From Escherichia coli (GTDB lineage: Bacteria > Pseudomonadota > Gammaproteobacteria > Enterobacterales > Enterobacteriaceae): a stretch of DNA of 64,000 nucleotides. The DNA lies in assembly GCF_041248615.1 (NCBI RefSeq), contig NZ_CP158427.1; one strand, written 5' to 3'. Every line of letters begins with the position of its first letter. The stretch's first letter is position 1. This document shows, in pieces, positions 33,701 through 48,700 of the stretch. The position numbers are program-made.

Positions 33701-36700
33701 TTCCCGTATGCCGGAGAATGGCTGACCGAAGACGAAATCAGGGCTGTACTTGCGGCGGTGCGCGATGCGGTACGCAGTGTCAGTTGCCGGGTGGCAGAAG
33801 ATGCGCGGCGTATCCGGGCGGCGCTGACCACCACCGGTCAGACGTTGCTGACTCGCCAGACGCGCCGCTTTCGTCTGGTTGTGAAGGAAAGCGATCACCC
33901 CTGCTGGCTCGATGAAGATGACGAAAACCTGCCCGTGGTGCTCGATGCCATCGTGAACCGGGGAGCACGTTTTTCGTCGGTGGAAATGTACCTGGTCAGC
34001 GATTGTATTGAGCATATCCTGTCCAGTGGGCTGGCCTGCGATGTGCTGCGTATACCGGATGAACCGCCCCGCCGCTGGTTTGACCGTGGTGTTCTGCGGG
34101 AGGTGGTCCGGGAAGCCCGGGCCGAAATCCGCAGCATGGCGGATGCCCTGGCAAAAATCCGGAAATGATGACGTTGGCGGGGTAAATCCCCGCCTTTTTC
34201 CTGCCGGTCCCCGGACAGAGCACAAAGGAAGTCGCCGCCGGCTCCGCTTTACCCGGCCATGCAGGGCATGGCCTTGTGGTTTTTCAGTTATGTGGCCTCA
34301 GCGTCGTGTGCGGGCTGTGCCGTGCCTCCATCTTAGCCGGGCTGGCAGGGATGCAAGGGTACGCTTCGCCGCTGCGGTCACCCGGTCCCTCCTTCCCGTC
34401 TGCCGTGATTTTCCGGTCGTTCACCCGCTCAGATTTCGCGGTCTCACCCTCCAACTCCCGCCAGCCGTGTGCGTCAGGCTGCGGCTTCCCTTGCGCCCTG
34501 TGCATCCCCGCCTTATCGCCCGGCTTTTATGGAGGCACGGCACCGCCCGGTGTCGCGGAATATGTGAACAACGGAGGAAAACATCATGCAATATGCGAAA
34601 CCTGTCACTCTGAACGTTGAAGAGTGCGACCGTCTCTCCTTTCTACCGTATCTGTTTGGCAACGATTTTCTGTATGCCGAGGCGTATGTGTACGCGCTGG
34701 CGCAAAAAATGATGCCGGAATATCAGGGAGGCTTCTGGCACTTCATCCGCCTGCCGGACGGTGGCGGTTACATGATGCCGGATGGCGACCGTTTCCACAT
34801 GGTGAACGGTGCAAACTGGTTTGACCGTACCGTGAGTGCTGATGCCGCAGGCATCATTCTGACTTCCCTTGTGATTAACCGCCAGTTGTGGCTGTACCAC
34901 GACAGCGGGGATGCAGGACTGACCCAGCTTTACCGGATGCGCGATGCGCAGTTGTGGCGTCACATCGAATTTCACCCCGAATGCAACGCGATTTACGCGG
35001 CACTGGACTGATTAACGGACGGGGCGGCAATGCCGCCCCTGTAAAGGAGACGAGAACATGTACTGTACTGTTAAAGAAATTATCCGCGAAGTGCTGAACA
35101 CAGACGTGCCGGACAGTGAATGCGTTTTTGCCGTGGTGCTGACCCGTGGGGATGTGCGTCACATAGCCCAGGACTGGAGTCTGACAGACGATGAGCTGGA
35201 AACCGTCATGCAGCGACTGGACGATGCCTTTGCGCATGGTGCGGATGTCAGCATTGTTCACGACGTTGTTCGTGAGCTGATGGAAGAAAAGCGCGCCAGC
35301 CGTCAGGTGACAGTTCCGGCGGTGATGCTGGAAAAAGTGATGGCGCTGGCAGGCAGTGAAATGAAGCGCCTGTATGCCGTCGGGAGCGAGAACGGGGGCG
35401 ACGGTGACGCATTCGTCAGGGAAGAACGCGAAGCAATGGACGTTGTGTTACAGGCGCTGGACGGGGAGCACATGTCATGAATATCAGCACAGAAACCCGC
35501 GAAATTCTGCGCAATTACAAAGCCGTGATTAATGCGCGGCGTCGTGAAATGGGGCAGAAACCGCTCACCACTGCGCAGATTGTTGATGAAATCTGCGATT
35601 TTGTGGCGAATCAGCAGGCTGTATTCCTCGGCGGTCACTACATCCTTCAGGGCAGCATAAACAGGTGATACAGGGGCAGGCGGTGGAGGCCGCCTGTCAG
35701 CCCGCGCGAAAACCCCTGGCAGGCTGACGCCTGCCGGAAGGGAAGCGGGCCACGCTGGCGCGTCGCCCGTTACCCTTCCCGTCTGTGATGTGTCTGACTC
35801 AGGAGTGTTTCTTTCTTATGTTATGGAACTGTTCCTGATGTTGTTGTTCCTTTATCTACTGCTCTGATTCTGACTACTGCAGTGTTGTTCTGTCTGCCGG
35901 GCGCACCTTCGGCTCCCGGCTGCCTGGCGGCATCCGGTCGTCAGGCCCGACTCCGACAGGCAGCTGCTGGCGCACCTGCCAGTCTCCGCCGAACCCGCTG
36001 GCGCGGTTTCGGGCTGCCGCTACGGTCCGATGCGTGAAAACCCCTGGCTTGCAGCGACCGTTCCGGTCGCGCCGCCTCTGTCGCGCCGTGGCCTGCGCTC
36101 CCGGCATCCCGGCAAAAGGCCGCCGGGATGTAAGGGGCAACGCCGTTTCGCGCACGCGCTCTCCGTCGTTGCGGCGGGCCCCTGCTCATTGCCTGCCGGG
36201 TGCCACACACCCGTATGAGTCCCTGTCGCCGGGGGCTGATACAGCCACAACCTGCCGCACTGACTGTCCAGGGTAAATGAACAGCCCACAAAATTTTTTA
36301 CCCAAAACCCGGTAAAAAATTTTGCGTTCTGCCCAGGACAGGTGCGTCAGGCCGTGGCAGTGATGCCCCTTGCGGCGAAGGTTCTCAAACGGGTGAAGTT
36401 CATACCACAGTGAATACAGCAGCAGGTTCCCGCGAAACGTCAAAACCGCGGCTCCCGAAACTCAACGGGTGATGTTCTTTAAAAATCAGGATTTATTTCA
36501 GGCTCCGGCAATACGCATTTATTTGTTCTGTCAGTCATCCGGCTGACAGGTAATGAGAACGCAGGAACAGAAGGAGGAAAACACCGGAAAGCGTCAGATG
36601 CAGATATGAAAAAAGCAGGTCAGGCACCTGCTTAATCCACGCCGTAAGAATTGTGCGACCAATTTTGACGGCATTGTTAACCAATTTGTCATAAGGAATC

Positions 36701-45700: not shown

Positions 45701-48700
45701 TAATGCAGTTCGTGCCTTCGGTATTTTCCGGTGATAAACATGAGTCCCGGAGTGAACGTTATACGTATATTCCAACAATCAATATCATCAATAAGTTACG
45801 TGATGAAGGTTTCCAGCCATTCTTTGCCTGTCAGAGTCGGGTTCGTGATTTGGGACGTCGCGAATACAGTAAACATATGTTACGTCTTCGCAGGGAAGGG
45901 CATATTAACGGACAGGAAGTTCCTGAAATTATCCTGCTTAATTCACATGATGGTTCATCCAGTTATCAGATGATCCCCGGAATTTTTCGTTTTGTCTGCA
46001 CAAATGGCCTGGTGTGCGGAAATAATTTTGGCGAAATCCGCGTTCCACATAAAGGTGATATTGTCGGGCAGGTTATCGAGGGAGCGTATGAAGTGCTCGG
46101 TGTCTTTGATAAGGTCACTGATAATATGGAGGCGATGAAAGAAATTCATCTTAACAGTGACGAGCAACATTTATTTGGCAGAGCTGCACTGATGGTCAGG
46201 TATGAAGATGAAAATAAAACGCCAGTGACACCTGAACAGATAATTACTCCCCGTCGTCGGGAAGACAAACAGAACGATCTCTGGACAACCTGGCAGCGGG
46301 TTCAGGAGAATATGATAAAAGGTGGATTATCGGGGCGAAGTGCCTCCGGGAAAAATACCAGGACAAGAGCCATTACAGGTATTGATGGTGATATAAGAAT
46401 CAACAAGGCGTTATGGGTGATTGCCGAACAGTTCAGAAAGTGGAAGTCATGATAATATAAGTAAAGCCCCGAAAAAATTTTCGGGGCTTTACTTATATTA
46501 TCATTTTTCGGCATTGCTGTGTCGTCTGATATACCTCAATTTCATCGACCGGCTTTCCGGTTGTCTGTAAATATTGTGCCCGCGAAAAATGGTCTGGCAG
46601 GAGGCTGCGCAGTTACCGGGTATATATAAGATGGGTTCCCGCTTCGCGGGGCTTCGGCCAGTCAGTATTGTCACTCATATGATATTTTTGTGTGTGGCCT
46701 TCCATGCTGCTTTTGCGGCATAACCGGTATCTGACAATGTCTGTAAGATTAATTATTCTGCACGCTGTTAATTTCCGGAAGTGATTTCTTCGTGGCCGGA
46801 AGCCGGATACCTTTACTGCTTTTTATCCCGGTATAAATCCGGTAAACCTCTGATGCGTAGGCAAGACGTCTCTGGTTCTGGCGTTCGGATTTCCTGAATC
46901 CTGCATTGTATGCACCAACGGCCTCCCAGGTGACGCCCCATTTTTTAAATGCTATTGCCAGATAATAAGCACCGGTATAAATGTTCATGCAGGGATCTGT
47001 TGTCAGATGTTCTGGCTTAATTCCGTAGCGGGCCAGTTCGTTAAAATGCTGGGAATCTACCTGCATCAGTCCGCTGCCATATCCCGTTACCGGATTAATA
47101 CCGATGGCATTAACCCGGTAACGGGATTCTTTCCATGATATTGCTCTCAGTAAATCAGGATCTATTTTGTAATCCCGGCCTGCAAGATCAAAGCAATCAG
47201 TGGCCTGGCAGATCTCATTTATAAACATCAGGCAGATGGCTAACATCCATTTTTTCATTTTTCCACCTCTGGTGACTTTATCCGTAAATAATTTAACCCA
47301 CTCCACAAAAAGGCTCAACAGGTTGGTGGTTCTCACCACCAAAAGCACCACACCCCACGCAAAAACAAGTTTTTGCTGATTTGCCATTTGAATCATTAAC
47401 TTATGTTTTAAATAATGTATTTTAATTTATTTTACATTATAAAAAGGATTCATTGGTGAATCGCATATGATTCACCAATGAATTTAACGCAACTCATAGA
47501 TGAATCAGTAATAATAAAACAACGAGTTAAAGCGAATTGACTCTAGATTCAATTCGTGATGTGATTTGCTGCATGAATCGTAATTTTCGTAACTTGCGTC
47601 ACGATTCGATTCATCGATGAATTGTCATTTTTTTATATGTGAAATAAATTTGATGCGATAAGAAAATAAAGAGGTATACATATGGCGAAAGTGCAGGCTT
47701 ATGTCAGTGACGAAATTGTCTATAAAATAAATAAAATTGTGGAAAGAAGACGTGCAGAAGGAGCTAAAAGTACAGATGTAAGTTTCTCAAGCATATCCAC
47801 TATGCTTCTCGAATTAGGGCTTCGTGTATATGAGGCTCAGATGGAGCGTAAAGAGTCAGCGTTCAATCAGGCTGAGTTTAATAAGGTACTTCTTGAATGT
47901 GCGGTAAAAACACAGTCAACAGTTGCTAAGATTTTAGGTATTGAGTCACTAAGCCCTCATGTTTCCGGGAATCCAAAGTTTGAATATGCGAATATGGTCG
48001 AAGATATCAGGGATAAGGTGTCATCTGAGATGGAGAGGTTCTTTCCAGAAAATGATGAGGAATAAAAAAGAATTAAAAGTTGATTTGCTTCAAATAACAG
48101 GATTTTGATCTGGTTCAATTTGATGACAATTAACCGCATAAAGGTTATATTAATTACGTGGTTAATGCCACGTTAAAAATTGAAACTGAAAATCGCCGAT
48201 GCAGGGAGGTCTGAACTCCCTGCATCGACTGTCCATAGAATCCTTAACGGAGGTTCCTATGTGTGCGCTGGATCGTAGAGAAAGGCCACTTAACAGTCAA
48301 TCTGTAAATAAATACATCCTTAACGTTCAGAATATCTACAGAAATTCTCCCGTTCCGGTTTGTGTCCGTAACAAAAACCGGAAAATCCTTTATGCCAATG
48401 GGGCTTTTATTGAACTCTTTTCCAGAGAAGATAAACCCTTATCCGGAGAGAGTTATATACGTCTGCAGGTTGAAATTTTTCTTTCATCACTTGAACTGGA
48501 ATGCCAGGCTCTTGGACATGGCTCTGCATTTTGTCGTCGTTTTAATTTTCATGGCGAAATCTATCAGATAAGGATGGAGAATGTTTCTTTTTATAATGAC
48601 GAATCTGTTGTTTTATGGCAAATTAATCCGTTTCCTGATTATCCATTTTTTGCGTTAAATCAGAGTGGAAGTAATACAAATACTTCTGATAAATTAACGA

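Follow-up and report, generated by a model that had tools for sequence, protein, structure and literature searches.

Three Frpo-type single-strand promoter repeats in the leading region of an R1-type IncF plasmid, and a possible split methyltransferase behind the first of them

The DNA considered here is a stretch of 64,000 nucleotides of the Escherichia coli contig NZ_CP158427.1 (hereafter the window), in which a GC-rich element of ~640 nt occurs three times, each time ahead of a block of genes. We conclude that the three copies are very probably paralogous class-1 promoters for single-stranded DNA (ssDNA), known as Frpo, ssi or ssp1, in the leading region of an R1-type IncF plasmid. An original prediction, made from the sequence alone, had proposed the Frpo/ssi arrangement of F-like leading regions, and this reading has held: the repeats lie in an IncF leading region, share 80-94% identity with the Frpo elements of F, form a covariation-supported hairpin on the transferred strand (T-strand) and precede co-oriented genes. 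The repeats and the gene families behind them are already known; the one new lead is a split methyltransferase, possibly encoded behind the first repeat by the genes for the DUF3560 protein YdbA and a neighbouring enzyme of 187 aa.

A direct-repeat search combined with blastn located exactly three copies in the window, all in direct orientation: copy 1 at 35848-36489, a class-1 ssDNA promoter repeat; copy 2 at 39170-39810, ahead of ssb and the counterpart of F Frpo2 (ssp1b); and copy 3 at 44566-45206, ahead of ygeA/ygeB and the counterpart of F Frpo1 (ssiD, ssp1a). The three GC-rich repeats of the original prediction were thereby recovered, with limits within ~16-22 nt of the blastn ends, and so was the expected near-identity with copy 1 as the more diverged member: copies 2 and 3 share 99.4% identity across 638 nt, whereas copy 1 is 90.9-91.9% identical to them. 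The GC content of the 5′ halves is 0.66-0.68, compared with ~0.55-0.60 in the flanks. A 21-nt core motif is confined to the three copies (number expected in shuffled sequences, 0), and reverse-strand self-matches by blastn revealed an imperfect palindrome of ~260 nt inside every copy. No Rfam family matched inside the repeats at the gathering threshold, which is expected because the element is DNA.

When folded as ssDNA, the transferred strand of each copy yields one imperfect hairpin of ~300 nt. Measured to the outermost predicted pair, the hairpins occupy 36152-36452 in copy 1 (free energy -91.7 kcal/mol, z -7.0), 39470-39779 in copy 2 and 44866-45175 in copy 3 (both -102.6 kcal/mol, z -11.25), all on the minus strand of the window. 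Shuffled sequences gave -56 to -58 kcal/mol (-55.6 +/- 4.2 kcal/mol for copies 2 and 3), and the T-strand fold is better than the plus-strand fold by 8-10 kcal/mol. The fold is further supported by covariation. We aligned eight T-strands, namely the three window copies, F Frpo2, the published F ssiD, and one Serratia and two insect-metagenome candidates taken from the supplement of PMC11541004. The consensus structure contains 101 pairs, of which 15 show double changes that preserve pairing, and 93% of the cells across the eight homologues are paired. Covariation was scored at 0.157, compared with 0.094 +/- 0.007 in shuffled alignments, none of 500 reaching the observed value, and the score drops to 0.04-0.05 when the partners are slid by 1-3 columns. 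The extensive folding foreseen from the GC-rich palindromic content is therefore borne out both by the energies (z -7.0 to -11.25) and by a covariation score above all 500 shuffles.

The kinship with F is close. The repeats align end to end with the published F ssiD (D90178) in T-strand orientation. The columns shared with F number 445 and make up the 3′ ~445 nt of every repeat. There, copies 2 and 3 match F Frpo2 at 93.7% and F Frpo1 at 89.1% identity, and copy 1 matches F Frpo2 at 92.3% and F Frpo1 at 80.2%. The 5′ ~170 nt are 97-98% identical among the three window copies and, at 40-47%, unrelated to the F flanks. Deletion of either Frpo1 or Frpo2 in F abolishes the early, pre-conversion expression of downstream fusions (Couturier et al., PMC9849209), and start sites of class-1 promoters have been mapped by rapid amplification of cDNA 5′ ends (5′ RACE; PMC12672017). 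Promoter transcripts have also been reported to prime strand synthesis (bioRxiv 10.64898/2026.01.09.698686).

How would RNA polymerase read such a hairpin? We assigned the promoter boxes and start sites by inference from sequence and structure. The 3′ arm of the T-strand hairpin is the non-template arm, and from the loop side it begins with an apical A/T-rich tract. After this tract comes CCCTGGACAG, with the -35-like hexamer TGGACA, whose first T is opposite a T-T mismatch; a spacer helix follows, and then GGC-TG-TAT-CAG inside a conserved internal bubble. On the minus strand, the TGGACA box lies on the non-template arm at 36265-36270 in copy 1, 39586-39591 in copy 2 and 44982-44987 in copy 3. 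The putative -10-like element CTGTAT, which follows an invariant TG in the conserved mismatch bubble, is placed at 36239-36244, 39563-39568 and 44959-44964, respectively, also on the minus strand. In the eight-homologue alignment TGGACA is invariant, with 5/6 matches to the consensus, and its helix shows no covariation, whereas the spacer helix contains six covarying pairs; such a pattern would follow if recognition depends on the bases of the box and, in the spacer, on shape alone. The spacer measures 17 nt in copies 2 and 3 and 20 nt, with a bulged TCA, in copy 1. The same bulged spacer is present in the functional F Frpo2, and the non-template arm of copy 1 is of the F Frpo2 type, the 3-nt bulge included. 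The loop-to-base order of UP, -35 and -10 elements has been described previously (PMC11541004), and the 3′-arm layout agrees with it. In our reading, the permanent mismatch bubble stands in for promoter melting. The start sites are predicted near 36367-36374, 39688-39695 and 45084-45091, with leaders of ~135 nt for ssb and ygeA and ~335 nt for the first open reading frame (ORF) behind copy 1. As to the promoter-like boxes expected on the stem, the hairpins show an invariant -35-like TGGACA and, in copies 2 and 3, a 17-nt spacer, with a candidate -10 that is weakly consensus-like. A promoter on the 5′ arm (TTGACG near the base) was also considered and dropped because nothing -10-like lies at 16-18 nt; TGGACA, the covarying spacer and the bubble, all of them on the 3′ arm, likewise oppose it. 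A pattern scan for duplex consensus sequences found no sigma-70-type promoter on either strand of 39100-39900, and a terminator scan of copy 2 returned a single terminator-like site, at chance level.

The genomic setting marks a leading region. Across its 11.5 kb the sequence shows 100% identity to many IncF plasmids, R1 (NZ_KY749247.1) among them, and over 958 records reach a coverage of 80% or more. In the annotation of an identical record, parM, a DNA methylase, DUF1380 proteins and an antirestriction protein precede copy 1; a hypothetical protein, DUF3560 and a class I methyltransferase dependent on S-adenosylmethionine (SAM) lie between copies 1 and 2; ssb, DUF905, a ParB-like protein, psiB, psiA and hok lie between copies 2 and 3; and a hypothetical protein, DUF932, an SLT transglycosylase (minus strand), traM and traJ follow copy 3. 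From this order we placed the origin of transfer (oriT) near 47.4-47.7 kb. The traM/traJ/FinP genes are at 47.7-48.3 kb, with the traJ 5′ untranslated region and FinP matched by Rfam at 48156-48265. The transferred strand is the minus strand of the window and the template for all plus-strand leading genes. The genes behind the repeats are all on the plus strand and point to oriT, so the repeats adjoin oriT within the leading region and precede genes templated by the transferred strand, as class-1 promoters do.

We propose the following sequence of events. During conjugation, the minus strand would enter the recipient 5′-first from oriT; each repeat would fold on the entering strand, its stem mimicking duplex promoter DNA, and host sigma-70 RNA polymerase would start ~7 nt past the -10-like element and leave through the hairpin base towards oriT. 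Copy 1 would drive a 76-aa ORF, ydbA and the methyltransferase gene, copy 2 would drive ssb, yfjA, yfjB, psiB and psiA, and copy 3 would drive ygeA and ygeB. The transcripts could also prime complementary-strand synthesis, which would remove the hairpins and switch the promoters off. In this view the repeats also recombine with one another, and gene modules come and go between them.

Several points weigh against this reading. The promoter activity and early expression of these copies are argued by analogy with F Frpo1/Frpo2 and pESBL ssi1-3, the activity of copy 1 is presumed, and the box and start-site positions are our own assignment. The -10-like hexamer is poor, with 2/6 matches for CTGTAT and 3/6 for TGTATC at 18-nt spacing, and there is no A at -11. 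Copy 1 lies ~215 nt upstream of its first ORF, compared with ~20-50 nt for copies 2 and 3, and deletion of Frpo2 in F did not reduce transfer in standard matings (PMC9849209). Might the repeats instead serve mainly as priming sites (ssi) or roadblocks for complementary-strand synthesis, transcription being secondary? Frpo was originally isolated as a single-strand initiation site, Frpo RNA primes DNA synthesis, and transcription-dependent early conversion downstream of ssp1a and ssp1b has been reported in vivo; the class-2 hairpin acts as a replication roadblock, and the GC-rich 5′ half carries several short stable hairpins (z -3.4). A priming role is, however, compatible with a promoter role, and the roadblock effect has been assigned to ssp2 and not to ssp1. 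Early downstream expression is lost on deletion of Frpo1 or Frpo2, and an invariant -35 box beside a covarying spacer fits promoter recognition; we consider a predominantly priming or blocking function unlikely.

Still less probable, and in our judgement very improbable, is that the repeats are selfish or structural DNA (mobile-element remnants or recombination scaffolds) in which the hairpin is incidental and copy 1 is a non-functional duplicate. Such an origin could account for the concerted evolution of the copies (no differences between copies 2 and 3 across 445 nt, against 87% identity in the F pair), for mosaics, for the removal and insertion of modules by recombination between such repeats (PMC3817090), and for the small hypothetical ORFs that RefSeq places within them. 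The elements are accompanied by neither a transposase nor terminal inverted repeats, however, and all copies keep one orientation to oriT, each directly ahead of a co-oriented gene block. Compensatory changes maintain pairing across distant homologues; copy 1 is kept in place in pKpQIL despite only 66-69% nucleotide identity, and its arms are co-adapted, with -91.7 kcal/mol compared with -78.6 kcal/mol for the F Frpo2 mosaic. These observations argue against a selfish or structural origin.

Several other features of the repeats were observed. The GC-rich 5′ halves (35848-36147, 39170-39469 and 44566-44865) fold moderately, with z -3.4 relative to shuffles, into several short hairpins that include a perfect 9-bp stem, CATCCCGGC...GCCGGGATG; the 3′ ~130 nt of this half are kept in F, and similar stretches were recognized by eye in published insect-metagenome and Salmonella Frpo-like sequences. 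The repeats are bounded on their upstream side by a tract rich in pyrimidines (in purines on the T-strand). RefSeq annotates small hypothetical proteins inside them at 35941-36189 (-), 39111-39359 (+), 39263-39487 (-) and 44525-44755 (+), which are probably over-calls because the repeat DNA is a conserved non-coding hairpin element. A second 76-aa ORF at 38959-39189, after the methyltransferase gene, ends in a stretch of Leu and Phe residues specified by CTG/CTA/CTT-type repeats, and F has CTT-rich tracts at the matching position.

How did the repeats evolve? Within the 445 F-shared columns, copies 2 and 3 (39367-39810 and 44763-45206) are 100% identical, whereas the F pair is 87% identical; this indicates a recent gene conversion between these two repeats, which are 5.4 kb apart. 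F lacks copy 1 and the module of the 76-aa ORF, DUF3560 and methyltransferase genes, as seen in its alignment with the window. Its Frpo2 (~8290-8625 in the numbering of the F stretch) has a left, promoter-bearing, non-template arm resembling copy 1 and a right arm resembling copy 2, and it forms the weakest hairpin among those compared (-78.6 as opposed to -91.7 and -102.6 kcal/mol). This mosaic fits a loss of the module from the F lineage through recombination of one repeat of the copy-1 type with another of the copy-2 type, with gene conversion as an alternative origin. Recombination among three Frpo repeats is documented (PMC3817090). In the IncFIIK-type plasmid pKpQIL, repeats with 66-69% nucleotide identity occupy the same two positions flanking the same module, so that a diverged counterpart of copy 1 stands ahead of it there as well. 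A toxin-antitoxin locus of the hok/sok type (flm; 43973-44305, plus strand) lies between copies 2 and 3, identified from the Rfam match to sok (43973-44149, 88.9 bits) and an annotated Hok coding sequence; Couturier et al. suggested that hok/sok between the copies guards against deletion (PMC9849209).

We then consider the two larger genes behind copy 1. YdbA (36988-38349, plus strand; 453 aa) matches the DUF3560 family (Pfam PF12083, E 1.1e-36) in residues 89-206 only and has no PDB relative by sequence. It is followed by a SAM-dependent methyltransferase of 187 aa (38396-38959, plus strand) with the motifs EPSAGTG and MNPPF and an M.TaqI-like catalytic domain; its best PDB sequence match is the catalytic domain of M.TaqI (E 2.5e-6). 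The SAM motif I, an (N/D)PP(Y/F) motif IV and a Rossmann fold are traits of gamma-class N6-adenine DNA methyltransferases, of which the enzyme is a candidate member. It matches PADLOC profiles of Type II and orphan DNA methyltransferases, the methyltransferase domains that PHROG lists for giant phage proteins, and a 'DarB-like antirestriction' protein of phage origin. An exhaustive protein search found 3881 relatives of the DUF3560 protein, and among the best 150 of these, 100 carry a C-terminal homologue of the 187-aa enzyme (~180 residues, E 1e-16 to 1e-41), joined to the DUF3560 part by a proline-rich linker. Most of those with 45-55% identity are 640-700 aa long. The fused form occurs near RadC, resolvase or integrase genes, or near a terminase small subunit, that is, in other mobile-element settings. 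Because of this fusion architecture, it is plausible, though the balance stops just short of favouring it, that YdbA and the 187-aa enzyme are the halves of one split methyltransferase in which YdbA is non-catalytic.

The structure models are of high predicted quality (predicted local distance difference test score, pLDDT, 93.5 for YdbA; pLDDT 92.7 and predicted template-modelling score 0.75 for a fused relative). The DUF3560 part is modelled with a beta domain at either terminus and long arginine-rich helices between the two, and has no solved structural analogue, and in the fused relative only the catalytic domain matches known methyltransferases, M.TaqI ranking first in Foldseek. More tentatively, we suggest that the pair might form a two-subunit DNA adenine methyltransferase, made from copy 1 only during entry and serving as a second entry-protection system of IncF plasmids. 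It is equally tentative that the coiled-coil/beta DUF3560 protein would provide binding to DNA, perhaps ssDNA, in place of a target-recognition domain. The likeliest role of such a pair, by analogy with M.EcoGIX, would be protective methylation of the entering plasmid: an entry-only N6-adenine DNA methyltransferase could shield incoming DNA from restriction.

Two findings count against this proposal. The 187-aa enzyme lacks a target-recognition domain, its alignment being with the catalytic domain alone, and the RNA methyltransferases TrmN, Erm and KsgA/Dim1 score nearly as well as M.TaqI. We therefore weighed whether the pair might have a role other than DNA protection, either reprogramming the recipient through RNA or protein methylation (of the Erm/KsgA or HemK kind) or, for YdbA, acting as an independent hydrolase-like protein. 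The best NCBIfam matches of the enzyme are Erm, KsgA and PrmC, all far under their cutoffs, and TrmN, ErmE and Dim1 follow directly after M.TaqI in Foldseek; the NPPF motif and M.TaqI as the best match nevertheless favour N6-adenine methylation, and in PADLOC and PHROG the enzyme matched DNA methyltransferases and a DarB-like antirestriction protein. As for YdbA, some databases label it 'hydrolase' or 'HD hydrolase', and it has a nearly invariant GHHS motif, but a Pfam search gave no HD-domain match and the fusion architecture ties it to the methyltransferase. We regard a role outside DNA protection as somewhat unlikely, and retain the split DNA methyltransferase as the tentative proposal.

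The remaining genes of the three blocks are as follows. The 76-aa ORF directly behind copy 1 (36706-36936, plus strand) encodes a conserved small protein and has an AAGGA ribosome-binding site 8 nt upstream; its product is 80% identical in amino acids to the pKpQIL homologue, compared with ~73% for the surrounding DNA, and we consider it probably a real gene. It has no family match in NCBIfam, PHROG or PADLOC. The interval between copy 1 and this ORF (36490-36705) holds a strong AAGGAGG followed only by frames of 3 and 9 aa, as well as two short hairpins. In pKpQIL the equivalent slot (3783-4010 in its own numbering) contains a 75-aa ORF; for this reason, the interval may be the remnant of a lost gene. 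Behind copy 2, the plasmid ssb (39829-40356, plus strand) comes first according to the RefSeq annotation and alignment; its true start is 39829, as shown by RefSeq and the aligned N-terminus, while the ATG at 39790 sits in the hairpin base. The rest of the block (40412-43867, plus strand) consists of DUF905 (yfjA), ParB-like (yfjB), psiB and psiA genes, with names from PMC9849209. Behind copy 3 come ygeA (45224-45511, plus strand; 95 aa), positioned as in F, and ygeB/yubP (45631-46452, plus strand; 273 aa), a DUF932 gene (Pfam PF06067, E 2.8e-52, residues 36-262; phrog_12094). YgeA is found in Enterobacterales plasmids only and has no Pfam, NCBIfam or PHROG match. In F, it is made early from Frpo1 and its deletion lowers the transconjugant frequency to ~4%, and ygeB could not be deleted on its own (PMC9849209). 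Weak PDB matches of YgeB to sugar epimerases (E >=0.013) were taken as chance. PADLOC returned no match for the 76-aa ORF, YgeA, YdbA or YgeB, and the two small ORFs (the 76-aa ORF and YgeA) have no paralogue in the leading region.

With respect to the gene blocks, the original prediction fared well on architecture: the ORFs lie at the coordinates it gave, and of the four that it singled out for profile searches, those labelled DUF3560-like and DUF932-like matched PF12083 and PF06067, the two small ORFs being without a family. Its label of candidate early-entry or anti-defence genes agrees with the literature but adds nothing new, and to see the DUF3560 protein as a candidate half enzyme is preferable to treating it as a separate gene of its own kind. 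The supplementary table of PMC11541004 includes DUF932/YgeB, DUF3560/YdbA and the adenine methyltransferase among the families enriched in leading regions. In that table of Samuel et al., YgeB is family 3, with a median position of 1 from oriT, and the adenine methyltransferase (family 26, n=1957, median position 11) is a neighbour of DUF3560/YdbA (family 28, n=1913, median position 12) but is entered separately from it.

Two further T-strand hairpins occur on the minus strand of the leading region. That at 34240-34585 (-86.9 kcal/mol, z -4.8), with TTGCAT ... TAAGAT boxes, is directly upstream of an antirestriction gene of the KlcA/ArdB type at 34586 and matches the published class-2 ssDNA promoter (ssp2, 'Frpo3' in one preprint), a replication roadblock. 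The name 'Frpo3' was accordingly rejected for a third class-1 copy, as in the literature it denotes the class-2 hairpin of F. The other, at 31640-31987 (-98.8 kcal/mol, z -6.7), is of a third type, lies upstream of an M.EcoGIX-like DNA methylase gene (~31988-32671) and fits the published class-3 ssDNA promoter. Together with the three repeats, these class-2-like and class-3-like hairpins make five candidate single-strand promoters in the leading region. A chromosomal CRISPR spacer of Klebsiella pneumoniae (PMC6965323) maps with 3 mismatches to the base of the copy-1 hairpin (36156-36187, minus strand) and also to 3421-3452 and 6805-6836 of the pKpQIL stretch in its own numbering; PMC6965323 lists it as 'intergenic', with 2-4 hits per plasmid in 524 plasmids. 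From these matches, host CRISPR arrays appear to target the multi-copy, first-entering Frpo repeat. Another spacer in that study, labelled DUF3560, resembles by eye the published Serratia Frpo-like sequence. Elsewhere in the window, Rfam matched group II intron domains (D1-D4), isrC and STnc490 at 4125-4413, 5609-5731 and 17975-18098; isrC and STnc490 are families of Hfq-binding small RNAs.

F-like plasmids commonly have the layout described here, and features of this kind are already known. Samuel et al. put the number of Frpo homologues at 13,089, spread over 6,006 conjugative elements (PMC11541004). In our search, at least 5000 plasmid records carried the hairpin, and the best 5000 held it at 13,397 places (~2.7 per record), three per record being the commonest value among the sampled rows; the copy-1 module was present in at least 4775 plasmid records. 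Thousands of sequenced plasmids contain the exact sequence. Promoters of the Frpo type account for the expression of SOS-inhibition and anti-restriction functions by resistance plasmids only minutes after entry, and the window is a textbook R1-type example that adds nothing to the Frpo mechanism. The split-enzyme hypothesis, on the other hand, covers two of the most abundant uncharacterised leading-region families (~1900 members each), and, if the pair were indeed a broad-specificity protective methyltransferase, it would offer a point of attack against the spread of IncF resistance plasmids.

Among known systems, Frpo1 and Frpo2 of F are the closest to copies 3 and 2, respectively, in the T-strand hairpin, the gene positions (ygeA/ygeB; ssb to psiA) and the orientation to oriT; unlike F, however, this plasmid has a third copy and a module absent from F. 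Three dispersed Frpo-homologous repeats that head leading-region operons are also known from IncI1 plasmids (PMC3817090, PMC12672017), in which recombination between the repeats deletes the intervening DNA (PMC3817090). ColIb-P9, pESBL (ssi1-3) and pO26-CRL125 (R1-R3) resemble the window in this layout and in the gain and loss of modules, but differ in their IncI1 backbone and more diverged sequence, and promoter activity in pESBL is backed by RNA-seq and 5′ RACE. The class-2 (ssp2) and class-3 elements, both represented in the window, are likewise T-strand hairpins upstream of leading-region operons, but their sequences are unrelated to the three repeats; class 2 has clearer boxes (TTGCAT, TAAGAT) than the repeats and forms a replication roadblock resolved by UvrD. 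For the enzyme pair, M.TaqI shares with the 187-aa protein the NPPF/NPPY-type motif and the catalytic Rossmann domain, but it possesses a C-terminal target-recognition domain to which the DUF3560 part has no similarity. The ssDNA-specific M.EcoGIX of pESBL belongs to a different family, with the motif DPPY where the 187-aa enzyme has NPPF, and its homologue in the window is the separate 'DNA methylase' at ~31.99-32.67 kb, further from oriT. Like the YdbA/methyltransferase pair, M.EcoGIX is an orphan leading-region methyltransferase co-oriented with an ssDNA promoter; being silent in donors and protecting the entering DNA, it provides a functional model for the pair.

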